NCBI GenBank assembly: GCA_024277435.1
Contig: JAJRVJ010000005.1
Span: forward strand, 25,747-89,746
Length of the DNA: 64,000 bases
DNA from: Patescibacteria group bacterium
GTDB taxonomy: Bacteria > Patescibacteriota > Patescibacteriia > UBA9570
Direction: 5' to 3'
Positions within the stretch are counted from its first letter, which is position 1; the number at the start of each line of letters is the position of its first letter. A program made the position numbers and the translations under genes. Below are positions 1,037 to 56,644 of the stretch, piece by piece. A model generated the notes under the pieces. That model saw nothing but the letters and a program-made list of their open reading frames with translations. It ran no database searches and was not told the DNA's origin.

Positions 1037-3607
1037 TTATTTAGAAAACACAACTTGATCATTGACAAAATCAACTTTCATAGTATCTCCATCATGAATA
1101 CTACCTTCAATAATTTCTAACGATAATTTATCGAGAATAACTTTTTGAATAACTCTCTGCAATGGTCGTGCTCCAAATTGCTGATCAAACCCAATTGTTG
1201 CCAAATGGCGCTTAACAGCATCAGTTAGCGTAAGGTGTATGTCTCTTTTAGCTAATCGTTTTTGCACGCGAGCAACTTGTAAATCAATAATACTCTCAAT
1301 ATGTTCTGGTTCAAGATGATGAAAAATAATAGAATCATCAATACGATTTAAAAACTCAGGCGGAAACGTTTCTTGCAATACAGTATTCACCGCATCACGC
1401 TGAGCAACAGTATCACCAATATGCTGAGCAATTTGTGTACTACCAAGATTTGATGTCATAATAATTACTGTATTTGTAAAATCAACCGTACGACCCTTAG
1501 AATCAGTTAATCTTCCATCATCTAATACTTGCAATAATATATTCAACACTTCTGGATGTGCTTTTTCAATTTCATCTAATAAAATTACTGTATATGGATA
1601 ACGCCGCACAGCCTCGGTAAGCTGTCCACCTTCTTCATGCCCTACATATCCTGGAGGTGAGCCGATGAGTCGAGCAACAGCGTGCCTCTCCATGTACTCA
1701 CTCATATCGATACGAACCAAGCGTTGTTCATCATCAAATAAAAATTCTGCCAAGGCCTTTGCTAATTCGGTTTTTCCAACTCCGGTGGGGCCTAGAAACA
1801 TAAATGATCCAATTGGGCGTGATTCTTCTTGGATTCCAGCTTTACTACGCCGTATAGCATTCGCCACAGCATGCAATGCTGGCTCCTGACCAATTACTCG
1901 CTCACCTAATAGTTGTTCTAATAGCGCCAACTTCTCTAACTCCTGTACTAACATCTTTGCTACTGGGATATGTGTCCAACGTGATACAATTTGCGCAATA
2001 TCAGTTTCAGTCACTTCCTCCTTTAGGAGGGTCTCATCCTGCTGAATGCTTGCCAAATCCTGCTGAGCCTTGATAATTGTTTTCTCCAATTCAGGTATTT
2101 GACCATACGTAATTTCAGCCACGCGCTCTAAATGACCATCGCGCTCAGCCTGTATTGCCTCTTCTTTGAGTAAATCAATCTCTTTACTCGATTCATTAAT
2201 TTTATCAATATACTTCTTTTCATTCTGCCATTGCAACTCAATATGTGTATATTCCTCACGTAATTCTGCTAACTCTTTTTCAAGATCACGTAATCGCTGT
2301 TTCGATGTTTTGTCTTTTTCTTTACGTAACGCTTCGCGCTCAATTTCTAATTGCCGAATACGACGATCAAATTGATCAATCACTGTAGGCTTACTATCAC
2401 GTTCAATGCGCAATACCGAACATGCCTCATCCATTAAATCAATTGCCTTATCTGGTAAAAAACGATCGGCAATATAACGATCAGATAACGTTACAGCAGC
2501 CACTAAAGCATTATCACGTATCTTCACGCCATGATGCACTTCATACTTCTCCTTAATGCCGCGCAAAATTGAAATAGCATCTTCAACCGACGGCTCCTCA
2601 ATAACGATTGGCTGAAAACGACGCTCCAGCGCAGCATCCTTTTCAATATACGTTCGATACTCACGTATTGTTGTTGCCCCAATGGCTCGTAACGTACCAC
2701 GCGCCAAAGCTGGTTTCAATAAATTACCAGCATCCACTGCACCATCAACTCCACCAGCCCCAACAATAGTATGGAGCTCATCAATAAATAAAATAACCCT
2801 ACCATCAGATGTTTCAATTTCTTGCAATACCGCTTTCAAGCGATCCTCAAATTCACCACGATACTTGCTGCCAGCCAATAGAGCTCCTAAATCGAGTGCT
2901 AACACCAACTTATCACGTAAACTATCCGGAACATCCCCATCAACTATTTTCTTGGCTAAGCCCTCCACAATAGCAGTTTTACCAACTCCTGGCTCTCCAA
3001 CTAATACTGGATTATTTTTCGTGCGGCGCGATACAATTTGCATCACACGACGAATTTCATCATCACGCCCAATGACTGGATCAATCTTTCCAGCTTTTGC
3101 CAGCTCAGTAAAATCAGTTGTATATTTATCAAGTGCCTCATATTTTCCTTCGGGATCTAGATCAGTTACGCGTTGACTACCTCGTACCGCTTGCAATGCC
3201 TGTATAACATCTTCACGTTGTACATTTAAGAGCTTAGCAATAGACTCCTGCTTGAGTAATGCTAATAACAAATGTTCTGTACTAATGTATTCATCACCTA
3301 ATTTACCTGCTTCGGATTCTGCATCTGTAAATACATTCTTTAATTCATTAGTAGCATACGGAGAATCACTAGTGCTGACCTGATGTTGTTTTTGTAATTC
3401 ATCCTGCAATTGTTGCTGAATATCTTCCGTAATAATTTCAAGCCGTTCGAACAACCGCGGCACAATTCCATCCTTCTGCTGAATCAATGAAAATAGCAAG
3501 TGCTGAGGCTGCACCGCTTGATGTTCTAAGGTTCCGGCTAATTGCATAGTAGCTTGGATAGCCTCAGCAGATTTAGTAGTATACTTTGAAAAATTCATAA
3601 TATTCAA
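1037..3607 (-). CDS. clpB: ATP-dependent chaperone ClpB (Hsp100 disaggregase)
   Basis: 856 aa; Clp N-domain repeats; two AAA+ modules ([15 protein letters not shown] / [15 protein letters not shown]); a long coiled-coil M-domain between them; sensor-2 [10 protein letters not shown]. Confidence 0.95.
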
Positions 3608-4691: not shown

Positions 4692-5909
4692 TTAGTTATT
4701 AGCAGTTTGACGCTTTGCAAAACTCGCAGCCTTAGCATCCTCTACCTCTGGTTGATCAAAAGGATCCTGGTCACGCAACAGTGCTGAATATACCGTATAG
4801 TAATGCCAAAATGAGATTAGTTCACCAATACTCGTTTCTGATACTTCATTCACTTCTAATGTAAGATGAGGAATCTCTAATGCCGTTGCATTTTCTGCTA
4901 CACCTTCATAATCGTATCGTAAACCATCCTGCAAAGGAATGCCGTGAATATCCGCCAGCGTACCATCACGCAATGCAAGTGATTGTACTTCGTCTGGTAT
5001 TACTGTAGATAAATTCTTCGTGCGTTGATTACGCAATGTCATAAAAAATCCAATGGCATTCTTGCGTCCACCAAAGAACCGCTGATTCGTATGATGTTGC
5101 GATTCCGGAGCTTGGTCACCAAAAATAGTCTGTCCCTTACCATCCTTACCAGTACTCTCATGAATCAATTGCACAATAAGCGGTAAAAATCCTGCTAGCG
5201 CTTGTGAATAGATTGGCATAAATATCTCTGTATAGCCTGCCTGATCATTTTTCCAGCAACTATAGGCTGCCTGCAGTGCGATATTATCTTCAACTGGCGC
5301 CGCATATCCAAAAGTGTCGTACGCCTGAACAGCTGCTGTATTAATAGCAGCAACATCTAAGCCCATTAGTTCAGCTGGCGCAAAAGCACATTCCGTGCGC
5401 CCAGAATAACGCCCACCCACTTCAGGATGCGGCACAATTGGCCAGTTATACTGTTTTGCTAATTCATATAACACACCTTTTTCTAGTGATGTTACAGCCA
5501 CAATCGGATAATCAAGAAATTGAAATAATGGCTCTAATACATCAATGTTCGTTCCTGATTTTGAAATCGGTAGCACCAACGTAGTGTCAGGTGAATATTT
5601 TTTATGTAACGCCTGAATCACATCTGGCTCCATCGTGCTAAGAAATTCAATGGTTGTATCATTCCGTAAATGTGCCAACGACTGCCAGTACGCCAATGCA
5701 CTTGTGCGTGACCCCCCATTAGCAATAATAATAACGTTCGTGTATTTCTGATAATCAACTACTACTGAATGGACATACTCTAAATCTACAGCATACCCCT
5801 GAAATGCAGGTAGTGGTAGTTTTTTCCACTCAGTTTGTAATTGAACCAGATCATCAATAGTAATTGATTGTTGATCGTGATCTGTGATTAAACGTAAATG
5901 TGAAGTCAT
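4692..5909 (-). CDS. pgi: glucose-6-phosphate isomerase
   Basis: PGI signature VGGRYSGRTE and sugar-isomerase region IIIANGGSRTSALAY. Start taken as MTSHLRL... (ATG 5907-5909) rather than the ORF-track extension. Confidence 0.85.
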   Translation of the reverse strand: MTSHLRLITDHDQQSITIDDLVQLQTEWKKLPLPAFQGYAVDLEYVHSVVVDYQKYTNVIIIANGGSRTSALAYWQSLAHLRNDTTIEFLSTMEPDVIQALHKKYSPDTTLVLPISKSGTNIDVLEPLFQFLDYPIVAVTSLEKGVLYELAKQYNWPIVPHPEVGGRYSGRTECAFAPAELMGLDVAAINTAAVQAYDTFGYAAPVEDNIALQAAYSCWKNDQAGYTEIFMPIYSQALAGFLPLIVQLIHESTGKDGKGQTIFGDQAPESQHHTNQRFFGGRKNAIGFFMTLRNQRTKNLSTVIPDEVQSLALRDGTLADIHGIPLQDGLRYDYEGVAENATALEIPHLTLEVNEVSETSIGELISFWHYYTVYSALLRDQDPFDQPEVEDAKAASFAKRQTANN

Positions 5910-6432: not shown

Positions 6433-9209
6433 TAAATTCTTTCGGCCTTAATAACTTCCACCTGGCCACCAGCTTGCAATTCAACAACATCTCTGCGCGA
6501 TAAACGACTCTGTAATAATAATTTTGCAATCGCATCTTGTGCGGTATCTTGTATCAAGCGCCGTAATGGTCGAGCCCCATATATTGGATCATATCCTCGC
6601 TCAGCAAAATCTACCACAGCCTCATCTGTCCAACGTAAGGTAATACCCTTTACTTCCATTTGCTTAGCTAAGCCAGCTAATAATAATTCACACACCTGTT
6701 GCAATTCTTCTTTTGTTAACGGCGTGAATACCACCACATGATCAAACCGATTTAATAACTCAGGACGAAAACTCTGATTGAGTAACCCCTCATTCAATAA
6801 TTGATCTTTAATGCCACCGCTAGTAGCGCCCTTCGCATACAGTTGCTGAATCACATCAGTACCTGCATTAGATGTTGCTACAATCATTGCGTTAGTAAAA
6901 TCTACCGTTCTACCAGTACCATCCGTTAAACGACCATCCTCCATTACCTGTAAAAAGATATTAATAACATCACTATGGGCCTTTTCGATTTCATCTAGTA
7001 ATACAATTCCAAAAGGAGTTTTACGAATAGCTTCAGTTAAATTTCCTTGCTGACCAGGTGCTCCAATTAGTTTCGATAATGAAGCCGGTGTTTGATACTC
7101 ACTCATATCAAAGCGCATCATGTTTGACTCATTACCAAAATACGCTTCCGCGATAGCTTTAGCAGTTTCTGTTTTACCTACACCAGTAGGCCCCAGAAAT
7201 AATAACGAAGCAATTGGACGAGTTGCATCGCGTAAATCTTCACGCGCCCTACGCAACGCCTTACCAATTGCATTAATAGCCTCATGTTGACCAATCACTC
7301 TACGATGCAATAAATCCTCCATGTTCAACAACTTATCAGCCTCATTTTGAGAAATTGCCGCTACTGCCACATTGGTTTTTTCGGACATAATCTGCTCAAC
7401 CGCCGATTTACGTACTAATTGCTTCACACCATAATGCTCACGCGTATAAATAGCAGCTTCCTCAATAATATCCACCGCCTTAGCTGGAAGATGACGATCT
7501 TGTATATAGCGATCACTCAATACCACAGCTGATTCAAGTGCATCATATGTAAAAAATACTTGGTTCTTTGCCTCAATATAAGGAGCGCGACCCTCAAGCA
7601 CTTTGATAGAATCCTGATGATTGAGTTCTGGAACTTGCACAACTTGAAAACGACGCAAAAATGTTTCTTGATTTTCGATGTGCTTCTGAAATTCAGGTGT
7701 AGTAGTAGTACCTAATACTTTTATGTATCCCTGAGAAATATAGTTCATCAAAATTTTACCAATATCAATACTAGACTGTGTTGATCCAGCCCCTAATAAG
7801 GTATGAATATCTTCAATAGCCCAAATAACATTTCCGGCTAAAATAATATCTTGAATAATCAATTGCATGCGTTGCTCTAAACCTCCAATACCTGATGCTC
7901 CAGCAATAATAGCACCCGGATCGGTAACTACTAAGCGCTTATCCTGTAACTGCGCCGGCACATCCTCGGAGGTCATTAAATTCGCAATGCCTTGCAAAAT
8001 TGTAGTTTTACCAACGCCTGAAGGGCCAACTAACATAACGCTACTATGACCCTCTTGCAACACACGAAATGCTTCATTAATTTCTTTCTCTCTACCAATT
8101 GGGGCCATAAATGCATTATTTTTTGCCATCAATGTAAGATCTTGCGAAACAGCGTCAAGATTCTTAGTAGGACGAGCTGTCATAGCCCGATTCATTACCG
8201 TTTTTGGCTTACCACGTGATAAGCGCTTACGACGATGCTCTTTATCCATCAAAGCCGTTACCAAATTACTCCAATGTACTAAATTACGAATCTTCTGCAT
8301 ATCCACATCTCTATCAAATAAAGCATCTTGAATATATTGATCTGCTAAAATTGATCCCACCATTACTTCAACCAAATCTACCGCCGGTTGCTCTTGATAA
8401 CGGGCCTCAGCATAGGCATACATAAGGGCCTTGCGCACCTCTGCGCCAAAATCTGGTGAATGTGTAAATTGATCTAGTTGATTTTCACGGTCGGCAATCC
8501 TCTGTATAGCTGCAACGAGATCTTGCGAGTTTATTTCCACACGATAGAACATTGATGCCACAGCTTCCTGTTCCATCAACGCTAAAAACAAATGACTAGC
8601 CCTCACCTCAGCATGCTTCAACTTAATTGCCAATTGATATGCGTCATCCAATACATTAAGCGCTCGGGTTTTAAAATAGTGTGATACATCAATTTTTTTA
8701 TGATTATCATAAGCACTCCAATACTCCCAACTGTTCATTTCATCAGTGAGGATTTCATCTGCAAAATGATTTGGTTCCGTAATCTCTGGTATTTGCTCAA
8801 GTACACGTTCTATCCGATAATACGCAAATAAATCCGCTAATACTGATAGCCAAAATATCAATAATTCACTCGATCGGTGAGTAAAGAAATCAACAAACGA
8901 GGCTCCAGCTTCATTTAATTCAACTACCTGAAGTACCATTGCCACAAAGCCACCGATACCAATAATTAATAATACTGAATTGATAAACCAATTCACTACT
9001 CGCTCCATCTTTTTTTCTAAGAGAGCAGCTGGGCTAATTTCATGACCCCAATACAATACGTCATTTTGAAAAAAACCATACACACTCTGCTTGTTGTGAC
9101 ACATCGAACATGTCACATGCTCACCAGATGCGGTAAGCGCATAGCCAAACCCATGACATTGTGGGCATTCTAAAAACGATGCGTTATATTGATCCTTCCC
9201 TATGTCCAT
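6432..9209 (-). CDS. atypical Clp/Hsp100-family AAA+ ATPase with an N-terminal zinc ribbon and one TM helix (ClpA/ClpC-like double ring, no M-domain)
   Basis: CPQC...CSMC zinc ribbon; TM helix WFINSVLLIIGIGGFVAMVL; Clp-N-like region; Walker A in D1 (GPSGVGKTT) and D2 ([12 protein letters not shown]); sensor-2 GARPLRRLIQ; short D1-D2 linker; no I/L-G-F/L ClpP loop visible. Confidence 0.85.
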   Translation of the reverse strand: MDIGKDQYNASFLECPQCHGFGYALTASGEHVTCSMCHNKQSVYGFFQNDVLYWGHEISPAALLEKKMERVVNWFINSVLLIIGIGGFVAMVLQVVELNEAGASFVDFFTHRSSELLIFWLSVLADLFAYYRIERVLEQIPEITEPNHFADEILTDEMNSWEYWSAYDNHKKIDVSHYFKTRALNVLDDAYQLAIKLKHAEVRASHLFLALMEQEAVASMFYRVEINSQDLVAAIQRIADRENQLDQFTHSPDFGAEVRKALMYAYAEARYQEQPAVDLVEVMVGSILADQYIQDALFDRDVDMQKIRNLVHWSNLVTALMDKEHRRKRLSRGKPKTVMNRAMTARPTKNLDAVSQDLTLMAKNNAFMAPIGREKEINEAFRVLQEGHSSVMLVGPSGVGKTTILQGIANLMTSEDVPAQLQDKRLVVTDPGAIIAGASGIGGLEQRMQLIIQDIILAGNVIWAIEDIHTLLGAGSTQSSIDIGKILMNYISQGYIKVLGTTTTPEFQKHIENQETFLRRFQVVQVPELNHQDSIKVLEGRAPYIEAKNQVFFTYDALESAVVLSDRYIQDRHLPAKAVDIIEEAAIYTREHYGVKQLVRKSAVEQIMSEKTNVAVAAISQNEADKLLNMEDLLHRRVIGQHEAINAIGKALRRAREDLRDATRPIASLLFLGPTGVGKTETAKAIAEAYFGNESNMMRFDMSEYQTPASLSKLIGAPGQQGNLTEAIRKTPFGIVLLDEIEKAHSDVINIFLQVMEDGRLTDGTGRTVDFTNAMIVATSNAGTDVIQQLYAKGATSGGIKDQLLNEGLLNQSFRPELLNRFDHVVVFTPLTKEELQQVCELLLAGLAKQMEVKGITLRWTDEAVVDFAERGYDPIYGARPLRRLIQDTAQDAIAKLLLQSRLSRRDVVELQAGGQVEVIKAERI

Positions 9210-9592
9210 AATTCAAATATATTCACAGGCATTAAACCAATTTGATAGAGAATATTATATAACACAAATACCGGAACAATCAGCCATAGTAACAATATTA
9301 ATATCAATACGGTCATATACGCGACAGCAATGATCATTAATAGCGAAAAATGCACTACGCGCACTGGAAAACTAATTAATCTACTCACAATATCATTAAG
9401 ACCATACATCGGAGTAAACAAAAACCGCGCAAGAATCTTTAAATTCAGCGTTCGCACTAAATCTTTAGCTTGATAGCGTAAAAGACCAATAATTTTTAGT
9501 GTTCCGCGATAATACCACCACGGAAGAAAATAGACTACGCTCCAAAGAATGTCTATAAACAAAAATTTAAGAGCACTTTTCACAGTCTGCAT
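9200..9592 (-). CDS. hypothetical membrane protein
   Basis: 130-aa ORF with 3-4 predicted TM helices. Confidence 0.4.
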   Translation of the reverse strand: MQTVKSALKFLFIDILWSVVYFLPWWYYRGTLKIIGLLRYQAKDLVRTLNLKILARFLFTPMYGLNDIVSRLISFPVRVVHFSLLMIIAVAYMTVLILILLLWLIVPVFVLYNILYQIGLMPVNIFELWT

Positions 9593-23194: not shown

Positions 23195-26100
23195 TTAAGT
23201 AAAATCATCTGGATCCCATGCTCCCGCAAGTGGATCATCTTCAGCAATTTCTTCAGGCGCAGTTTCAGGAGCGGCTGACGGGAAACGATCAGGATCAATA
23301 ATTTGTAACCAGGTATCAGGAATTGCTGACTTAATAGCCCCGCGTGTATGCTCAGACCATCCTGCCCATACCATTGCCAACGCATCACGTACGGCGGTAT
23401 CATCAGCTGCAGCGCGTTGTTCAATATATGTTCTAAAATGATCGACATCATCAATGTGCTCTGGACGATACAATTGCTCACCATCAGCAATCTCTTGATC
23501 CCACATCGCAAACATGAAGCGTTCACGATTTTGACCTAGCTGATCCATTGAAATAGGCCCTAATTCGGAAAGTACACTTGAAAATTCAGATTGCCTCCAT
23601 GCCACATCTTCACGTATACCTATGTCACGCTGTCCCACGATGCGACGACGAACACGATCACGTAACCGATCATAATGCCCCTCTGCTTTCGCCCAATCTA
23701 TAAATGCAGTAAGAGCTTCTTCCTGTTCAGAATCTGGGCCTAAAAAAGCATCATACGTATTTCCTACTTGTATCGCCTTCAATAATGCGTCTGTATCCTC
23801 GCTCGTAAGAAATTCTTCTTGAAGCTCTTGTAAGCGTCGAGCAACTTCCTCAGTAAGCTCTGGAGCGCCTGTAGATTCTAGTTCCTCAGGTTGAGCGAAA
23901 GGAAAGTCTTCAGCTGGCGGCGCTTCAGTAAACCATTCATGTGGTATTTCTAGAACGCGTTTAAAATATAAAACCTCTCCTGCATCATCAGAAATTGCAG
24001 CCCAAATACGACGGCGTAATTCTGGTAATTCACCGGCAGATTCTAATTCTCGATAAAATTCCGAAAAGACAGCCACTTCTCTAGATGAAATTGGTGATAA
24101 AATTCCACCTCTCTCATAACTACCTCGTACATTAGTTGCAAAAATAGCTTTCTGACGCTGCTCCAGCTTATCGCTATCAGGAACAACAATATCAGCAACA
24201 AAATCACCCATACCAACAACTCTCCACGCTCGAGTAGTATTTATACCGTTAGAAAGATTATCTTTCACCATTTTTTGAACCCCAGTTCGTAATACATCTA
24301 ATTTACCGTTCTGTTCTGCCCATAAGCGTACTTGCGGCCATACTGCACGATCTTCTTCGTTATTAAAGGGAAACATAATAATACTTCCGCGCTCAAGTTG
24401 GTCAACAATCCTATCAAACGCTTCTCTATATCCTTCGGGAAGGCTTTGGCGTGGATCAGCCTCTGGCACTACAGGCGGCGCCTCTGCTGAAACTTGTTCT
24501 GGTGTTGCAGGAGTAGAAAAATCTGGTGGAGAAGCAGGTCCGCTAGGGGGCGCTGAAAAATCAGGAGGTGAGGTTGGCGCTGATGGCGTACCGAACGTTG
24601 GTGAAGCAACAGGTGTTCCAAAACTAAGTGGAGCAACCGGACCACCTCCTAGTCCACTTAAACCAACTGCGCTAGATGATGCTGAAGGTTTAATAACAAC
24701 CTTCGGAGCTGGTGCTTTAGGGGCGGCTGGCTTAGCTGGAGTTTTTGGTGTTGAAACAGCGGCGGTTGGCACCGAGGTTGTAGTATCAAAAATATCATAT
24801 CCTGCTACAGCATTCGCAACCACTTGACGAATCCTTGCGTTGTTAATACGAGGCACTAACCCGGTTGTTAAAAAACTGGCTGGCGGACCAGATACAGCAG
24901 CATGCTTATCTTCACCCGGCAATACTTCTATTGATCGCACTAACCGCTCCATAGCTGCTAATCCTGCATCACTTGTAAATGCGAATGGTAATGGATAATC
25001 AACTGAGGCATCAGTAACTGCGCCATGGTGACGCAATCGTTCCATAATATACTCACGCACTTTCACATTTGGGAACGCTAAATCAAATCGCACCACTAAT
25101 TCTGCTAAACGAAATAACTCCGTCACGTTTGTAAATTTTTGCATAATATCTGCACGCGCCCCATCAATAATTGCATTACCTGGCTCCACAGCAATAAAGT
25201 CGTTAAACCCATGCTGCATATCAATTAACGAGGTACGTAATCCACGGATATTACTTTGTAACGTACTTACACTTAAATCATTGCCACGATCAATCATTAA
25301 TTGCGAAACCACATCTACTAACGGACCAGGACTAGTAGCATCGGTAGATAAATAATTCTGCAAACCAGTTACCACAGCTGTATCTAATTGATCTGGATAC
25401 GGTGCCACCGTGGATTCTACGCCATTCAAAAATGGCTCGAAAGCACCATCGTACTGATCAGCATCGATATCCTGGTAAAACAAATCTCCCTCACCACCCT
25501 CATACCATTGTCGCGCCTCTATAACTTGCGTAACTATTGTACGAAGATCACGGCGTAATGTAGTTGCACTCTCTAGGAAATCAACACCTATATCACCATT
25601 CGTATTTACAGTTGTCATTACATCTTTCACACGCTCCGTTACACTCTGCTCTGCGGCATGTAAACGAGCATGACGTTGTCGTAATTCTAGCAACATTCCA
25701 GCTGGACGATCTCCTGTGTGTTCCTCTTCAGCAGCAGTTACTTCAGGATGTGAAAAATCACGCCCCTTGATACTATCTGGCACATACATTTCTGGTGAAC
25801 GTGGGGTGCGTCGCGTTTGCAAATTTTCCATGTTATATGGAGTGAGCTCTTCCTCAAGAAATGTACTTACTACAGCCTGACGCAATTCAGTATTTGTACC
25901 CTCCGAAACCTCACCTGCTAATTCACTTACGTTATGCATGATATCTTCTACTGCAAGTGTGTCAGCTAACTGCATTGTCACTTCACCGCCCCTAAAGAAT
26001 ATTTCTGCCAAACGATCGTTATTAATTGCTGAATTTAGACCAATGCTATCATTATACGTATACACGCTTAATTGCGATGCATGATTCAATGCTCCTGGTG

Positions 26101-34867: not shown

Positions 34868-35260
34868 CGGGGATGTTTATATTCGATGATATCGTTCTTT
34901 TCATTGCTTGCTAGATGTGCTGAATATCACATTAATCTGTTCAAAAGTACAATTGCAAACATCGTACAAAAGGCTAAAGCGAAAGTTGCAGCATTATTTG
35001 CTCAACCACTAGCTTTTGCTCCTGCTGTAGCCTAAAACCTACAGCCATCCACTGATCTGATGCCTCATAGGATCACTCGGGTGTCACTTTATAAGGCTAT
35101 GCTATATAGTTCTGGGACTATGTAGATGAAAATTGCTCTCAGATCGAAGGTTGCCGTTTTGGCTGTTTTCCAGGTTAACCTTTTAAATGAAAAAACTGCC
35201 TAGCTAGTAGACGGTAATGCGATAGCGTATTAGACGCGGGTGTGAGCCCCGCCATCTCCA
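34868..35260 (+). ncRNA. ssrA: transfer-messenger RNA (tmRNA, SsrA)
   Basis: 5' GGGGAUGUUUAUAUUCGAUG pairs with 3' CAUCUCC-A to form a 7-bp acceptor stem with a G3:U70 wobble. The 3' GACGCGGGU...CCCGCC T-arm is near-identical to E. coli tmRNA. An internal tag frame, ...GCU AAA GCG AAA GUU GCA GCA UUA UUU GCU CAA CCA CUA GCU UUU GCU CCU GCU GUA GCC UAA, ends AFAPAVA*. The gene lies directly downstream of smpB. Confidence 0.75.
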
Positions 35261-35329
35261 CAATTACATGTAATGTACTGCCCCATCACACTTCAGTATC
35301 TTGCATAATTAATTACTAACACTACCACA

Positions 35330-49252: not shown

Positions 49253-49336
49253 ATATACAGTATACCACATCTACTACAGCCTGTAATAGACAACGCCCCA
49301 TGATCTTGCAACCATGAGGCGTTTGTCCTCCTCGTA

Positions 49337-50407
49337 CTAATCATCACGTTCGCACCGCTCGAAAGCGAGCTGGCGCCTGGTGTTACGCAGAGTCTCTGCT
49401 CCACCGCCATTCTTCAGCTGCCGCAGCAACCGATGAATTTCTACGCCCATCTGATACCAGACCAGTGGATTGTAGAAAGCGGTGTGACCCAGCTGCAGCC
49501 ACAGCGGCTGCGCATAGTACCAGCGCGTCCGCAGCTCTTCCAGCGTGATTCCGGCATCTTCATCCGGTGGGACGATTCTGGCATTGCTACGCAGAACCAC
49601 CCGATCGCCCCAGGTGGCACAGAAGAACCGCATGTGTACACCCCACTCACTATGAAGCTGCAACACACGATCTCTCCAACGGACAGCCGTGGAATGCTTC
49701 AGGCTCATACTCACAGCGGTCATGTGCTTACTCAGCACCGATAACCCAGATCCGCGCCAGGGCGTGGAAATGGTGAAGATGCTGTCCAGCACAATTCCAT
49801 ACTCTTCAATGAGCCGCTCAGCCAGAACAGTGATGTCTCTACCACCCTTGCTAAAGGCCAGTCCGATCACGGGAATGTCTGCTACGTAGTCCGCTACGAT
49901 GGCTTCGTACACGGGCTGAAGCTGAAGCTCTGCAATGCGGGCAGCCGACCGAACGTTGCCGTTGGTTGGCGTTACCATCATCACGATGCGCACGCCCCAC
50001 CAGCGTGACAGAGCTCGGGCAATCCAGTACGCTTCCTCTGTGAGCTGCTGAAAGCCCAAAGATACCACCACGGTAGCCAAGTGCTTGCCATGAGGTTCGA
50101 ACTGGCGCGGCATCTTACCGTACCGAAGCCGAACATACCGAATTGTAATGGCTGCCAGCAAGAGAATTGGAATGTGCGTAACGGCCAAGACGAAGATCTC
50201 GCGATCCGTCAGCACGCGGCGCAACTTCCGCAGAACGAATCGTGCTTTTCTCCACTGCACAGACACCTTCCACCGGAAGGAATCGCGCGGCGCCTTGTTA
50301 AACCAATGCATTACTCCCTCCGATGTCCAGTGATTATAAAAGTACTCTCTATCAAATAACTCGATTCTAGCAGTTTTGTCAATCAAAAACACCCCATAGA
50401 TATCCAT
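49337..50407 (-). CDS. hypothetical membrane-anchored protein in a GC-rich patch; possible alpha/beta-hydrolase-like
   Basis: 356-aa ORF in DNA of roughly 55% GC; N-terminal TM helix IFVLAVTHIPILLLAAITI; AFSKGG (A-x-S-x-G-like) elbow. The family assignment is weak. Confidence 0.4.
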   Translation of the reverse strand: MDIYGVFLIDKTARIELFDREYFYNHWTSEGVMHWFNKAPRDSFRWKVSVQWRKARFVLRKLRRVLTDREIFVLAVTHIPILLLAAITIRYVRLRYGKMPRQFEPHGKHLATVVVSLGFQQLTEEAYWIARALSRWWGVRIVMMVTPTNGNVRSAARIAELQLQPVYEAIVADYVADIPVIGLAFSKGGRDITVLAERLIEEYGIVLDSIFTISTPWRGSGLSVLSKHMTAVSMSLKHSTAVRWRDRVLQLHSEWGVHMRFFCATWGDRVVLRSNARIVPPDEDAGITLEELRTRWYYAQPLWLQLGHTAFYNPLVWYQMGVEIHRLLRQLKNGGGAETLRNTRRQLAFERCERDD

Positions 50408-51879: not shown

Positions 51880-53658
51880 TTAATCGGAAATATGTTTCGT
51901 TAAGTAACGACGACGCCAGTTATGATAATGCTTTTCTTTTATTTCTTCTTCCAAGGTTGGGCGGTATAATACATCGATATAATCTTCTACCATGCGCTGA
52001 GCTGAAAAATCCTGCCACACTAAACCAATTGTCTTCTTCATACGCTCAACCCACTCATTCGGTACATTCTTATCATCACGTTTATAAAATATATCTGTCA
52101 TTTCACCTTCAAGTAATTTGTATACATGCTCAGCTGGATTATCAGGATCTAATGTCCAGCCCATACCATCTAAACTTACTTCAGCAACCCAACCATCACT
52201 TACTGAACACTGTAAAATGCCATTGGCTGCCGCTTTCATTCCGCTGGTACCACTAGCCTCCCGGCCATAGATGGGAGTGTTTAACCACACGTCAGAACCA
52301 GATACTAATACATCAGCTAATTTAATATTATAATCTGGTATAAAAATAAAATCATTTTCAAGCCCATTGTCTTTAATGGCTTTCAATATACGCTTAATAA
52401 TTTCATGTCCTAACGTATCCGCTTGATGAGCTTTGCCAGCAATGAGAAATTTAACAGGTTTGTGTGCATGAAAAATAATATCCTTTAAACGCGCAATATC
52501 TTCAAATATTGTTTCCGGACGTTTGTATGACGCAAATCGACGCGCCCATGTAACGATCATGGCATCTGGATTAATTTCTCTACCAGTTCGATATTTTACT
52601 TCATCACGTAAACGATATTTAGCCATGGTATGTAGTCGCCATAACGCATAATTAGGCAGCTCATCAATTTGCTTCACACTAAACTTTGGCGCTTGAGCTT
52701 TAAGATCAGCGCTTACCCAACTAGGCATATGCACACCATTGGTGATACCCTCCATAGTTTTATCTGGCCATACTTCTTTCGCCATCTTGGCGTGCAATTT
52801 ACTTACCGCATTCATTCGAGCAGCCATATTTAATGCCAAGGCAGACATGCTAAATAATTCTGGTTTACCATCTACTTTTCCTTTATCTAAAATATATTCA
52901 ACCGACAACGTAAGGTCTTCTGCGTAGGTTTTAAGATAATGAATTACCAAATCACGCTGAAACACTTCATTGCCAGCTGGTACTAATGTATGATTCGTAA
53001 ATACAATTTTATTATGCGCATATTCATAGGCCTCCTCGAATGTCATATCATACTCTGCCTGATAATGTGCAGTAATTTCAAAAATCGCAAATGCGGAGTG
53101 CCCCTCATTCAAGTGAAATAATGATGGATGAATATGTAAGGTTCGCAGAGCTCGTACCCCACCAATACCAAGAACCATTTCTTGCAAAATACGAGTTTCT
53201 TTATCACCGCCATATAATCGACGAGTAATCAAACGATGCTCGGATGTATTTTCGGGGATATCAGTATCAAGCAGATACAATGAAACATCCCCTTCAATAT
53301 GTTCCCAAATCTGAAAATGCAACAAGTGCTCATCTACCGGAATAGTGATTTTGATCGGCTCTCCATGACTATCTACTACTAAATTAATTGGCGCCGCCGC
53401 AACATTAAGAAGAGGATATTTTTCTTGCTGCCCTTCCTTTTCATCAATAATTTGTTGAAAATATCCTTCTTTATATAAAAGACCCACCGCTACAAACGGC
53501 AACTCCATATCGTTAGCGGCCTTTACAATATCACCCGCTAAAATACCTAAGCCACCAGAATAAATTGGTAAACGATCGTCTAAGCCAAACTCGGCGCTCA
53601 TGTATGCAATAGGATGCTGTCCAAGCGTCCACCGAAATTTTTGTAAGTCCATAACCAT
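51880..53658 (-). CDS. glgP: alpha-glucan (glycogen/maltodextrin) phosphorylase, GT35 family
   Basis: AYMSAEFGLDDRLPIYSGGLGILAGD N-terminus; PLP-site EASGTSGMKAAANG. Confidence 0.9.
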   Translation of the reverse strand: MVMDLQKFRWTLGQHPIAYMSAEFGLDDRLPIYSGGLGILAGDIVKAANDMELPFVAVGLLYKEGYFQQIIDEKEGQQEKYPLLNVAAAPINLVVDSHGEPIKITIPVDEHLLHFQIWEHIEGDVSLYLLDTDIPENTSEHRLITRRLYGGDKETRILQEMVLGIGGVRALRTLHIHPSLFHLNEGHSAFAIFEITAHYQAEYDMTFEEAYEYAHNKIVFTNHTLVPAGNEVFQRDLVIHYLKTYAEDLTLSVEYILDKGKVDGKPELFSMSALALNMAARMNAVSKLHAKMAKEVWPDKTMEGITNGVHMPSWVSADLKAQAPKFSVKQIDELPNYALWRLHTMAKYRLRDEVKYRTGREINPDAMIVTWARRFASYKRPETIFEDIARLKDIIFHAHKPVKFLIAGKAHQADTLGHEIIKRILKAIKDNGLENDFIFIPDYNIKLADVLVSGSDVWLNTPIYGREASGTSGMKAAANGILQCSVSDGWVAEVSLDGMGWTLDPDNPAEHVYKLLEGEMTDIFYKRDDKNVPNEWVERMKKTIGLVWQDFSAQRMVEDYIDVLYRPTLEEEIKEKHYHNWRRRYLTKHISD

Positions 53659-53692: not shown

Positions 53693-54049
53693 TCAAGATG
53701 AAGGCAACTGCTTATTACACCAATTGTTAAACATATTGGTAATTGCTAGAAAAGCTGGGATGGTTCCAAGGTCATCTACGTATCCAATAACTGGAAGAAA
53801 TAATTCTGGCACCACATCAATTGGAAATAGTATATACAACAGCATAGCAATTCCGGCTAATACATAAGCGGTTTTTGCTTTACCTGGAACTGCGGTATTT
53901 CGTAAGTATGCCCAAGCAATTGGTAGAGTTTTCCAAAACTCCCACCAGGGTGGTAAAAACTGTTTAATAAAATCATTATCTGTAACAGACTTTTTTTCTG
54001 GTGATTCTTTCGGTTCGCTCTGTACCAATGGCAATTTCTCTTCATTCAT
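53693..54049 (-). CDS. YkvA/DUF1232 family membrane protein
   Basis: FPIDVVPELFLPVIGYVDDLGTIPAFL matches the DUF1232 core motif. Confidence 0.65.
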   Translation of the reverse strand: MNEEKLPLVQSEPKESPEKKSVTDNDFIKQFLPPWWEFWKTLPIAWAYLRNTAVPGKAKTAYVLAGIAMLLYILFPIDVVPELFLPVIGYVDDLGTIPAFLAITNMFNNWCNKQLPSS

Positions 54050-54201
54050 ATATACATTGTAGCACGTTTTAGTACTACCTACTCTCTAACTTCAAGCTGG
54101 ATTGAAGATTAAAGTTACAGCGTAGGTGCCCCGTCTCAACTTTCGTCGATTCGGGGCGCCGCTGGCTTACGCCGGCAGCTCCTTCTAGGAACCTTCGTCT
54201 A

Positions 54202-54666
54202 CTACGTTTCATCATTGCGCAAGATAGGTACGACCTCGCGCTCCACGGCCACAGCCGGGTCCACCATGAGGTCGATGAACCGCGGGTGCCGAGAGCTGGC
54301 TCCGATCCGCTTCTCCCAGTGACTGGCGAAGGCGAAGGGCACGAAGATCGTAATCCAGTAGAGCAGCCAGTCCTCCAGGCAGAACAATAACGCGGCGCCC
54401 AGAGTGTGGACACCGAAGATGCTGTGGAGCAGAACGGCGTAGAAGCCGAACTCCACTAGGTAGCGGAGGATGGTGTAGAGGTACCAAGCTCCGGCCGGCA
54501 CGTACTCCTTCAGGCTGCGCACCCGAGCCACCTCGATGGCCTTGGCCTCTCGCGACTCCCGGATGAGCTGGAAGAGACCCTTGCGGGTCATGGGGATCAA
54601 GATCGCGTACTGCTTAAGGATAATCACGATCTTTGCGAAGATGGTCAGGCTGATGGGATCAACCAT
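54202..54666 (-). CDS. hypothetical polytopic membrane protein in a GC-rich patch
   Basis: ORF MVDPISLTIFAKIVIILKQYAILIPM... with 4 TM helices; DNA roughly 58% GC. The overlapping ORFs 54075..54413 and 54212..54487 are spurious alternate frames. Confidence 0.4.
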   Translation of the reverse strand: MVDPISLTIFAKIVIILKQYAILIPMTRKGLFQLIRESREAKAIEVARVRSLKEYVPAGAWYLYTILRYLVEFGFYAVLLHSIFGVHTLGAALLFCLEDWLLYWITIFVPFAFASHWEKRIGASSRHPRFIDLMVDPAVAVEREVVPILRNDET

Positions 54667-54863
54667 AGGTCTCAGGTCCTTCAGGCACATACTCAGCGAC
54701 TGTGCCTATTAGGTTGGCGGGGGTGAATGAACAGTATGTCTTGAGTGTGTCTTACGACCCGTAGGGCTACGTGCACACTTAAAGACAGAACAGTATACTT
54801 AATAAGTGATCATTTGTCAATCCTTATGTACAAAAAACCATAATATATGGTAAACATATCTAT

Positions 54864-55532
54864 ATGAGCAAAACGAAACCTAGCAATCGAGGTAAAACTG
54901 AACGCTTCGCAAAAATACAAGAATTCTCTAATGTTCTTCATTTTGGAGCTTCAACAAAGGGTAAGTGGAATAAAAAGGTGTTCAATAATACAAACCCAAT
55001 TATTCTTGAATTAGCATGCGGCAAAGGTGAATATACCGTAGAGATGGCCCGCAGATTTCCTGATAAAAATTTTGTTGGTATAGATATAAAAGGAGAGCGT
55101 ATATACATTGGCGCAAAACAAGCGCTAGAAGAGAACCTAATGAATGTGAGATTTCTTCGTACAAAGATTGAAGATTTAGCTAAATACTTCAAAAAAAACG
55201 AAGTGTCAGAAATTTGGATTACCTTCCCCGATCCATTTCCAAAGATGAAGCAAATGAAACATCGGCTTACAGCACCAAGCTTCATGACTATGTATACAAA
55301 TATATTAAAGCCAAAGGGCTTACTGCATTTAAAAACCGACGCCGGACATTTACATCATTATACAATTGGAACAATGCAGGCTGCTGATTTTAAAATTCGT
55401 AAGATGTCTGAAAACATATACGCGCAAGATACGCTCGCTCATCCCCTACTGGATATTAAAACCAACTTTGAAAATAAGCATTTAGCCGCTGGGAAAAAAA
55501 TTTATTATGTACGTGGTGAAAATCGCAAGTAA
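54864..55532 (+). CDS. trmB: tRNA (guanine46-N7)-methyltransferase TrmB
   Basis: ILELACGKGEYTVEMARRFPDKNFVGIDIKGERI; WITFPDPFPK. Confidence 0.85.
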   Translation: MSKTKPSNRGKTERFAKIQEFSNVLHFGASTKGKWNKKVFNNTNPIILELACGKGEYTVEMARRFPDKNFVGIDIKGERIYIGAKQALEENLMNVRFLRTKIEDLAKYFKKNEVSEIWITFPDPFPKMKQMKHRLTAPSFMTMYTNILKPKGLLHLKTDAGHLHHYTIGTMQAADFKIRKMSENIYAQDTLAHPLLDIKTNFENKHLAAGKKIYYVRGENRK

Positions 55533-56189: not shown

Positions 56190-56304
56190 AGTTACTACCT
56201 TACAAGAATACCATCCATTTTAGCAATGATACCCTCAATTGACATAGCGCTCTAATAGAGTAAGCTGTGTGCACCCACATTGGGACCACCTCAGGAGAAA
56301 AAAC

Positions 56305-56457
56305 ATGCGTGACTCACGCGTTCAAATATTGGTAGCGGTACTGGCGATCGGCGTACTGGCGTACTTCGGCTACATCAGCGTCAAATCGATCAGCTTCGTG
56401 GAAATGGCCGCCGAGGCCATGAACATCTCCAATCCCACTGCAGATCTGGAGGAGTAA
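56305..56457 (+). CDS. possible small membrane protein (50 aa) in a GC-rich patch
   Basis: GGAG 8 nt upstream of ATG 56305; MRDSRVQILVAVLAIGVLAYFGYISVKSISFVEMAAEAMNISNPTADLEE has one TM helix. Confidence 0.3.
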   Translation: MRDSRVQILVAVLAIGVLAYFGYISVKSISFVEMAAEAMNISNPTADLEE

Positions 56458-56644
56458 TGAAGCAGGAGGAACTTCCACCCCGAGCACGACCAACGTCGGC
56501 TCGGGGTGCGCTCATGTATACACGTACCTTATTCCGAAATTTATAGCTCGCTTTCATTTATAATACACTACTGGACAAATTACCCAAAAAACTGTACAGT
56601 ATACCTCATCTTTGGAGGATATTAATATATAATTTTAAATACTC

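Follow-up and report, generated by a model that had tools for sequence, protein, structure and literature searches.

The 64,000-nucleotide stretch analysed here (positions 25,747 to 89,746 of contig JAJRVJ010000005.1, assembly GCA_024277435.1, from a Patescibacteria group bacterium), hereafter called the window, contains a compact GC-rich block, patch 2, located between a gene for a DUF1232 membrane protein and a trmB-type tRNA methyltransferase gene and carrying a single gene for a predicted membrane protein of 154 amino acids (aa). On balance, patch 2 is probably a lineage-restricted, variable cassette similar to the morons of phages, made up of old alleles that have been exchanged and whose GC richness is maintained by a fixation bias. 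The slot between trmB and the DUF1232 and phosphorylase genes is conserved and its gene variable; according to this explanation the alleles would be old and would have passed between lineages, or been sorted among them, by way of the conserved flanks. A persistent fixation bias would keep the GC content of the synonymous sites and of the untranslated stem-loops high. Three candidate forces could produce this bias: selection on the transcript for high stability and strong folding of the mRNA, selection for the use or decoding of the rarest codons of the host, and GC-biased gene conversion at a recombination-prone locus.

The best-scoring segment of elevated GC was found at 54118..54778 (no strand; maximum-scoring segment) with 58.7% GC against a window mean of 40.2%, and the richest interval of 600 nt, at 54125-54724, reaches 59.5% (z=5.19; mean 40.2% and standard deviation (sd) 3.7% for all 600-nt intervals). 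Concerning the other 600-nt peaks, patch 1 (49.3-50.3 kb) is comparable, with z=4.7, and the next best has z=2.8. By segment score, sliding-window z and composition profile the segment spans most of a leader, the coding sequence and the 3' stem-loops, and the profile changes abruptly at the borders. Because these limits coincide with a leader, an open reading frame (ORF) and stem-loops and not with arbitrary DNA, the GC-rich block can be regarded as a transcribed unit. An earlier note on this DNA had described a compact compositional island of about 58% GC at 54075-54700, lying between the AT-rich DUF1232 gene and trmB and about 4 kb from patch 1 (49294-50294). The enrichment is real (58.7%, z=5.2), the spacing is as described and the two neighbours are confirmed (Pfam E-values of 6e-10 and 4e-36, respectively), but the limits had been placed some 40-80 nt too far to the left.

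The coding sequence, termed type A (54202..54666, minus strand), is recognised as an ORF and through its homologue P0002; it encodes 154 aa, ends in a double TAG stop (54204-54199) and has a GC content at the first, second and third codon positions (GC1/GC2/GC3) of 0.57/0.37/0.84. The ORF can be extended to an ATG at 54690 (162 aa); the start at 54666, which is also that of the ORF in the earlier note, is favoured as the start of the homologue aligns with it. The alternate-frame ORFs of the patch (54075..54413, 54212..54487 and 54536..54712) have no counterparts in the homologous locus L001 and are therefore spurious, as had been supposed. The GC3 of 0.84 in the window and 0.88 in L001 is to be compared with 0.30±0.03 in the 36 other ORFs of the window, a deviation of about 16 sd, so that the compositional departure of this island of one membrane-protein gene is highly significant. 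GC1 and GC2 are within the host range. The rarest codons of the host dominate, with ATC used in 14 of 16 cases (host 11%), TTC in 10 of 10 (16%), TAC in 7 of 7 (21%) and AAG in 6 of 6 (39%), and leucine is encoded by CTC or CTG where the host prefers TTA. The ratio of Gly, Ala, Arg and Pro to Phe, Tyr, Met, Ile, Asn and Lys (GARP/FYMINK) is 0.91 in the window and 0.80 in L001 against 0.93 in the host, and Ile makes up 10% of the residues. The anomaly of patch 2 is almost purely synonymous, and the amino-acid composition is close to that of the host.

Homologues were sought in 5.8 billion clusters by a word-indexed search and in 1.84 billion representatives by exhaustive profile searching with HMMER. 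The sole homologue, P0002 (153 aa, 63% identical), was obtained from the 5.8 billion clusters by the word-indexed search; no others were found in either set, and none on viral contigs or in phage records or plasmids, although the fast divergence of the family limits what such searches can detect. The gene for P0002 comes from a different sample, where it sits on a contig of 1.7 kb (L001) with the position and orientation of its counterpart in the window, and the order of features there is an AT-rich TTGACA-17-TATAAT promoter, the gene, three 3' stem-loops, DUF1232 and phosphorylase. The type A gene of L001 has 60% GC and a GC3 of 0.88 between flanks of about 40% GC. The nucleotide identity between the two copies is 0.71/0.81/0.55 at the three codon positions, the third being the most variable, and the rates of nonsynonymous and synonymous divergence (dN 0.31, dS about 0.8, dN/dS about 0.4) indicate a type A protein under purifying selection.

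In an AT-rich genome, an intergenic block of high GC often turns out to be a structured RNA, and the whole transcript of patch 2 does fold better than dinucleotide shuffles (z=-3.5 in the window and -2.9 in L001, 20 shuffles each). It is nevertheless extremely improbable that patch 2 is a structured non-coding RNA in which the ORF is incidental. This candidate was discarded on the strong codon periodicity (GC2 0.37 versus GC3 0.84) and on dN/dS, the ORF being intact in both copies with substitutions concentrated at third positions; moreover, no Rfam match was obtained even at E<=1, and the fold excess of the whole unit comes mostly from the untranslated 3' stem-loops.

The contents of the slot differ among the related loci, five of which are informative (L005, L008, L011, L014 and L015 end before the slot). 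Type A occupies it in the window and in L001. In L004 (phosphorylase identity 80%) it contains a 172-aa membrane protein, type B, in a patch of 64% GC with a GC3 of 0.89. In L006 and L007, two independent assemblies (phosphorylase 69%), a type B ORF of 85 aa is found in a patch with 57% GC, the genome having 35%, and this ORF matches the N-terminal half of the L004 protein (36-41% identity, tblastn E=2e-10). In L003 (phosphorylase 81%) the slot is occupied by type C, a GC-rich DUF1232-domain protein (63% GC, GC3 0.86, Pfam 1e-11) which is only 29-36% identical to the AT-rich DUF1232 genes of the clade; no AT-rich DUF1232 is present in this locus. The slot is empty in L009 (phosphorylase 69%) and in the Kerfeldbacteria locus L010 (59%), trmB lying 87 and 40 nt from the phosphorylase gene, respectively, and both loci are also devoid of DUF1232. 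The trmB neighbour is present in L003, L004, L006, L009 and L010, and the DUF1232 neighbour is kept in L001, L004, L005 and L006. The earlier note had asked for an empty site in relatives, which exists in the distant L009 and L010, but in L001, L003, L004 and L006/L007 the site is filled by GC-rich genes. It had also considered relatives with the same gene in place at native composition: the gene is in place in L001, but its composition there is equally deviant. The phosphorylase relatives belong to the Candidate Phyla Radiation (CPR)/Patescibacteria, the named ones being Candidatus Kerfeldbacteria (59% identity) and Levybacteria (47%), and the slot-bearing clade is probably a CPR/Patescibacteria group related to Candidatus Kerfeldbacteria, the host taxonomy in this analysis being taken from the protein similarity of these phosphorylase relatives alone.

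In a metagenome-assembled genome, an abrupt composition change at both borders could also result from an assembly chimera, in which DNA of some GC-rich organism had been wrongly joined to a CPR contig. The probability of this is negligible. The same junctions occur in the independent assemblies L001, L003, L004, L006 (NCBI) and L007 (Logan), which come from other samples and rule out an assembly artefact, and the patch borders coincide with functional signals.

In the N-terminus of the phosphorylase, the window is 82-83% identical to L003, L004 and L005 and 74% identical to L001, which is the furthest. The slot protein of the window is 63% identical to that of L001 and has no significant similarity to that of L004 (BLASTP E=9.9), and L004 shares slot type B with the distant L006. 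At least three putative allelic types (A, B and C) are thus distributed against the host relationships. This incongruence, which is the only ground on which recombination at the slot was deduced, points to allele exchange via the conserved flanks, to ancient alleles sorted differently or to repeated replacement. We infer that the slot has probably been a variable locus for a long time and did not arise by a fresh insertion.

The same variability can be read as an ordinary horizontal transfer from an unsampled high-GC donor (e.g. the host of the CPR cell), the gene bringing its own GC-rich terminator free of a U-tract; this would have happened once, in an ancestor and too recently for amelioration, or repeatedly at an insertion hot spot. 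The slot of close relatives holds different GC-rich genes, as at moron hot spots (PMC2920897), and the direct neighbourhood of trmB and phosphorylase in L009 and L010 agrees with an insertion between them. We consider such a transfer unlikely, but it is the main alternative. A donor was found neither in the 5.8 billion clusters nor in the 1.84 billion representatives, and the collections of viral, phage and plasmid sequences gave none either, with the restriction that the fast divergence of the family limits detection. A GC-rich 3' stem-loop is common to alleles which otherwise cannot be aligned. The patch is bordered by DUF1232 and trmB, and neither an integrase nor a tRNA nor a duplicated target site was found at its borders, the only notable repeat at patch 2 being a pair of 9-mers inside the leader. 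A mobile-element origin was rejected, there being no viral, phage or plasmid relatives, no tRNA and no flanking target duplication.

The order in which the composition deviates also bears on transfer. In the amelioration of an imported gene, GC3 should decay first, and host-like amino acids, GC1 and GC2 combined with a deviant GC3 are the reverse of that order. Moreover both type A copies have a GC3 of 0.84-0.88 in spite of a protein divergence of 38% between them. Between these genomes the synonymous sites of host genes are saturated, the proportion of synonymous differences (pS) being 0.69-0.77 and exchanges between G or C (S) and A or T (W) reaching about 40% of fourfold degenerate sites against a ceiling of 42%. 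In a back-of-envelope two-state model, calculated with the lower confidence limit of this S-W value, a neutral gene that started at a GC3 of 0.95 and was inherited vertically after the window and L001 separated would have fallen to about 0.68 or lower, a value exceeded by both type A copies (0.84 and 0.88). The fourfold differences between the type A copies comprise 8 C<->G and 9 S<->W, which are small counts; the fact that C<->G differences are as frequent as S<->W suggests that S>W changes are being removed, which fits filtering better than a short elapsed time.

The gene of patch 1 (49337..50407, minus strand) gives an example of long-term GC-rich residence in the clade. Its GC-rich orthologues immediately follow the phosphorylase gene in L004 (53% identical, GC3 0.68) and L010 (43%, GC3 0.61, the host genes of L010 having 0.34-0.41). 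The polarised synonymous changes of this gene are balanced (10 S>W and 9 W>S), across a split deeper still, so that it can be taken to have resided here for long and not to have been imported recently. To judge from these sequences, genes of the clade do stay for long periods at a raised GC3 equilibrium, and this also stands against transfer as the explanation of patch 2. The protein of patch 1, for which Pfam gave no match, begins with a hydrophobic segment and contains the motif GFSKGG, which is similar to GxSxG. The first 32 codons of its gene (50312-50407) are AT-rich and absent from the orthologues, and its true start is therefore probably the ATG at 50311.

A broader explanation, which we regard as possible but put forward only tentatively, is that a few genes of the clade are kept by a dedicated mechanism at another, likewise stable codon equilibrium, with a GC3 of 0.65-0.9 in genomes of GC3 0.3. 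Each of these genes would form a unit by itself, most of them would encode membrane or secreted proteins, and they would be grouped around the phosphorylase locus; at least two of them carry the CCCCG...CGGGG hairpin described below. The state would persist long enough to saturate neutral sites, and patch 2 would be one hypervariable member. The mechanism could consist of hyper-stable or nuclease-resistant transcripts, of a rare-codon 'dialect' gating translation, or of an intense local gene-conversion bias linked to allele exchange.

Several observations weigh against a maintained, exchanged cassette, and some of them speak directly for transfer. The codon usage of type A is what would be expected of a genome of 65-70% GC, and GC-rich 3' hairpins devoid of a T-run are what an import from a high-GC bacterium would bring. 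The type B protein of L004 is rich in GARP residues (GARP/FYMINK 1.71) and its GC1 and GC2 are raised. The shortened type B copy of L006 has a GC3 of 0.67 and looks as if it were decaying. The synonymous divergence of type A (pS 0.49) is below that of host genes, and the fourfold identity of its copies is 56% against a composition baseline of about 39%, to be compared with 37% against about 30% for the phosphorylase. Its copies may consequently be younger than the genomes that carry them, which weakens the amelioration argument, and since type A has two members and no outgroup its GC3 maintenance is inferred. Homology between types A and B was tried and could not be sustained beyond a suspicion: in addition to BLASTP, hhalign gave only a C-terminal ERVP....R.DE motif (E=0.08) and tblastn a colinear match of 29% over 87 aa (E about 4), the two types having a similar helix layout and a shared hairpin. 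The predicted folding energy is about -0.40 kcal/mol per nt in the cassettes and -0.25 in host genes, which is a consequence of composition. A specific mRNA structure of the coding region was also rejected, as synonymous-codon shuffles gave inconsistent z values of -1.6, -3.3, +0.9 and -2.6 (host genes -1.4 and -0.4).

Even so, the foreign segment dropped into a native trmB/DUF1232 site that the earlier note had implied fits poorly, because an equally GC-rich homologue occupies the same place in L001. It is further opposed by the slot of the relatives, which is GC-rich behind a common promoter, by the failure to find a donor and by an excess of GC that is synonymous only. The data refute the recency of the insertion and not the existence of the island: this label is right descriptively, and a recent foreign insertion is not the best reading.

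The cassette is a predicted autonomous transcription unit, formed by a near-consensus sigma-70 promoter, a leader of about 120 nt, the ORF of 154 codons and three stem-loops. The promoter prediction (TTGACA-17 nt-TATACT, 54792..54820, minus strand) has 11 of 12 consensus matches in a consensus scan and lies in AT-rich DNA (GC 0.247), and the TTGAC, TA...T and subsequent G..GTCT columns are invariant in all five related loci. Transcription of the cassette would start near this match, at about 54785, and the cassette would be transcribed on its own from a strong promoter. The 5' leader (54667..54786, minus strand) was delimited by folding and comprises a hairpin at 54738-54786, a second hairpin and a GAAGGA Shine-Dalgarno-like motif; its fold (z=-1.7) is insignificant by itself. 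On either side of the first hairpin, which is 49 nt long, stands an identical 9-nt direct repeat (54729-54737 and 54788-54796; plus-strand sequence GAACAGTAT), and the outer copy of GAACAGTAT overlaps the -10 box. The hairpin and its repeats have the look of a short inserted element that duplicated its target, or of a promoter-proximal motif present in two copies by duplication, and no further copy of the element was found elsewhere in the window.

The 3' untranslated region (54118..54201, minus strand) forms three GC-rich stem-loops (58-68% GC), and the 105-nt 3' region folds with z=-4.9. The third and last of them, SL3, is GCCCCG-18 nt-CGGGGC at 54128-54157, and no T-run was found 3' of it. 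The CCCCG...CGGGG hairpin reported previously is thus real and free of a T-run as had been said, but is situated at 54129-54156 and not at 54140-54165. As a sequence, this 3' hairpin forms an imperfect palindrome. All three stem-loops recur in L001 (z=-5.4), and SL3 recurs in L004 (z=-4.0); the window, L001 and L004 have in common the final stem-loop and the sequence just beyond it, with one compensatory change from C-G to U-A in L001. The motif CCCCG-N8-30-CGGGG occurs twice in the 64 kb against 0.10 expected, at the ends of patch 2 and of another GC-rich unit at 56239-56513, and also lies 3' of the type B gene of L004. As it stands at the ends of GC-rich units only, these units share a 3' element that is missing from the ordinary host genes of the window.

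This arrangement could also be that of a regulatory upstream ORF, which would act as a rare-codon sensor of translation speed and control read-through into DUF1232 and phosphorylase by attenuation or polarity. The ORF uses almost only rare codons, termination at stem-loops devoid of a T-run may be partial, the ORF is followed on its own strand by DUF1232 and phosphorylase, and in L006 the end of the slot ORF and the start codon of DUF1232 overlap (ATGA). This function is very unlikely because in L003 and L004 an opposite-strand gene intervenes between the cassette and DUF1232 or the phosphorylase gene. Moreover the protein is under purifying selection with conserved helices and motifs, and the slot gene of L003 is a bona fide DUF1232 domain protein.

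No curated family was matched by the 154-aa protein in Pfam, NCBIfam, PHROGs, PADLOC or the PDB sequences, so that the family search suggested in the earlier note came out negative; the 162-aa ORF gave no Pfam family at E<=0.1 and is not a member of PF06803. Hydropathy and an AlphaFold model of low confidence (predicted local distance difference test, pLDDT, of 54) indicate three hydrophobic helices and a charged amphipathic linker, and the helices of the model are 4-23, 30-35, 39-53, 58-85 and 89-121. From the N-terminus, the layout comprises a hydrophobic helix (4-23), the linker (about 27-56) and two long hydrophobic helices (58-85 and 89-121), and the C-terminal tail is polar and acidic. 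The number of transmembrane helices is therefore put at three or possibly four, and the former description as a protein with four of them is right as to the membrane and approximate as to the number. Under the positive-inside rule, both the basic linker and the tail would face the cytoplasm. The fast divergence, the predicted membrane location and the strong predicted promoter suggest that type A is perhaps an abundantly transcribed envelope protein under diversifying pressure from the host cell or from phage.

Most of the GC-rich ORFs end in short acidic tails (..RNDET, ..RQDE, ..RREDE, ..ADLEE, ..CERDD, ..RETEEE and ..DQMEE), which are found in the window at 54202-54220, 49337-49355 and 56440-56457 and in L001, L004 and L010. 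These C-termini may be a coincidence or a shared signal for sorting or degradation.

The genes next to patch 2 have a native composition. The DUF1232 membrane-protein gene downstream (53693..54049, minus strand) is AT-rich, with a GC3 of 0.29 (PF06803, E=6e-10), and the trmB-type gene lies divergently upstream (54864..55532, plus strand) with a GC3 of 0.32 (PF02390, E=4e-36). The alpha-glucan phosphorylase gene (51880..53658, minus strand; PF00343) served as synteny anchor and as yardstick of host divergence. A scan of genome contigs with this phosphorylase returned one spurious locus only, and a scan of metagenome contigs with a DUF1232 alignment returned two unrelated loci only.

In L003 the slot ORF had been called on the wrong strand (5044..5463, minus, GC1 0.81 and GC3 0.58), the DUF1232 protein being encoded at 5065..5415 on the plus strand. 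Because of this call the real DUF1232 protein is missing from the protein database, and a search with the GC-rich DUF1232 of L003 found no homologues in a database from which its own ORF was absent. The slot is flanked in L003 (4404..4832 and 5555..5848) and in L004 (5152..5517) by minus-strand genes for short coiled-coil proteins with internal repeats (...KEYLDEKLYDLRGDL...). The KEYLDEKLYDLRGDL-repeat genes are absent from the window and are another variable component of the locus.

The third GC-rich unit of the window (56239-56513, plus strand) lies between the HlyIII gene and the next gene and contains an ORF of 50 aa with a single helix (ATG, 56305..56457), a GC3 of about 0.70 and the acidic C-terminus ..ADLEE. 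Its hairpin CCCCGAGC..GCTCGGGG is found at 56478-56506 (z=-3.8). A candidate promoter, TTGACA-17-TAAGCT, precedes it, with a -10 box that matches the consensus at 3 of 6 positions and was not reported by the consensus scan. In L003, positions 2417-3479 encode a Cys/Asp-rich secreted protein with a MopE motif (61% GC), with a candidate TTGACA-17-TATAAA promoter. In L004, positions 7883-9286 contain the orthologue of the patch-1 gene and a small ORF with a CPECG zinc-ribbon-like motif (9022..9267), followed by a GC-rich hairpin. A tmRNA gene was also found in the window (34869-35263, plus strand; Rfam RF00023, 81.9 bits), where ARAGORN called no tRNA or tmRNA.

Atypical GC is routinely taken as a timestamp of recent gene transfer, and the same deviant composition in diverged orthologues and in alternative alleles of one slot questions this use. 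If it is true that a GC3 of 0.84-0.89 is held in a background of 0.30, some force must override the mutation bias at the resolution of a single gene. Bacteria of this tiny-genome, episymbiont type would then be a tractable natural test of what sets the base composition of bacteria. A fast-evolving envelope protein with a strong predicted promoter is moreover a candidate factor for host or phage interaction in CPR bacteria. Should an unsampled donor exist, patch 2 would be an ordinary and tidy moron-like transfer.

Among known systems, integron gene cassettes differ from patch 2 in that a promoter of its own, such as the one predicted here, is untypical of them. The small membrane proteins of the DUF1232 family (PF06803, YkvA-like) are similar in size and membrane location, and both the neighbour of patch 2 and the L003 slot allele are members, but the 154-aa protein is not. 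With a classical genomic island or recent ORFan patch 2 shares the compact block of deviant GC, the ORFan protein and the absence from distant relatives. It is unlike them in having an orthologue in place in a distant member of the clade with GC3 undiminished and an anomaly that is synonymous only, and in being free of mobility genes, tRNA, flanking repeats and donor.

The vls cassettes of Borrelia have 49% GC in a genome of 28.6%, for which strong selective pressure linked to recombination has been invoked, and show a GC skew of 0.52, G-runs and arrays of silent cassettes for gene conversion (PMC11499132). Patch 2 resembles them as a GC-rich surface or envelope gene (the envelope role being predicted) at a hypervariable locus of an AT-rich genome. 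However, its coding-strand skew is -0.036, it has only five GGG triplets and there is no sequence relationship. Silent copies of patch 2 were not found by tblastn or blastn in the 64-kb window or the fetched loci, and a vls-like silent-cassette system was rejected for want of a second copy there and of GC skew. Biased gene conversion enriches GC in the recombining genes of bacteria (Lassalle et al. 2015, PMC4450053), and patch 2 is similar in its excess of GC, strongest at third positions, its non-optimal GC-ending codons and its signs of allele exchange. For one gene, however, a rise from 0.30 to 0.84-0.89 is judged to be far above the differences between classes reported in that work.

The closest likeness is to the phage morons of the Hendrix/Juhala concept, which are extra genes with their own promoter and terminator and a deviant GC, found at insertion hot spots (PMC2920897). 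Patch 2 is likewise a single gene with a predicted promoter and a terminator-like hairpin whose GC is unlike that of its flanks. It lies between genes that are adjacent in relatives (trmB and phosphorylase, 87 nt apart in L009 and 40 nt in L010), and its slot carries different inserts in different genomes. Unlike phage morons, it does not reside in a prophage, is flanked by cellular housekeeping genes, has no PHROG match or relative on viral contigs, and is GC-richer, apparently so over deep divergence, with no identifiable donor. Patch 2 is thus apparently a moron-like, hypervariable ORFan cassette whose GC3 seems to be maintained.

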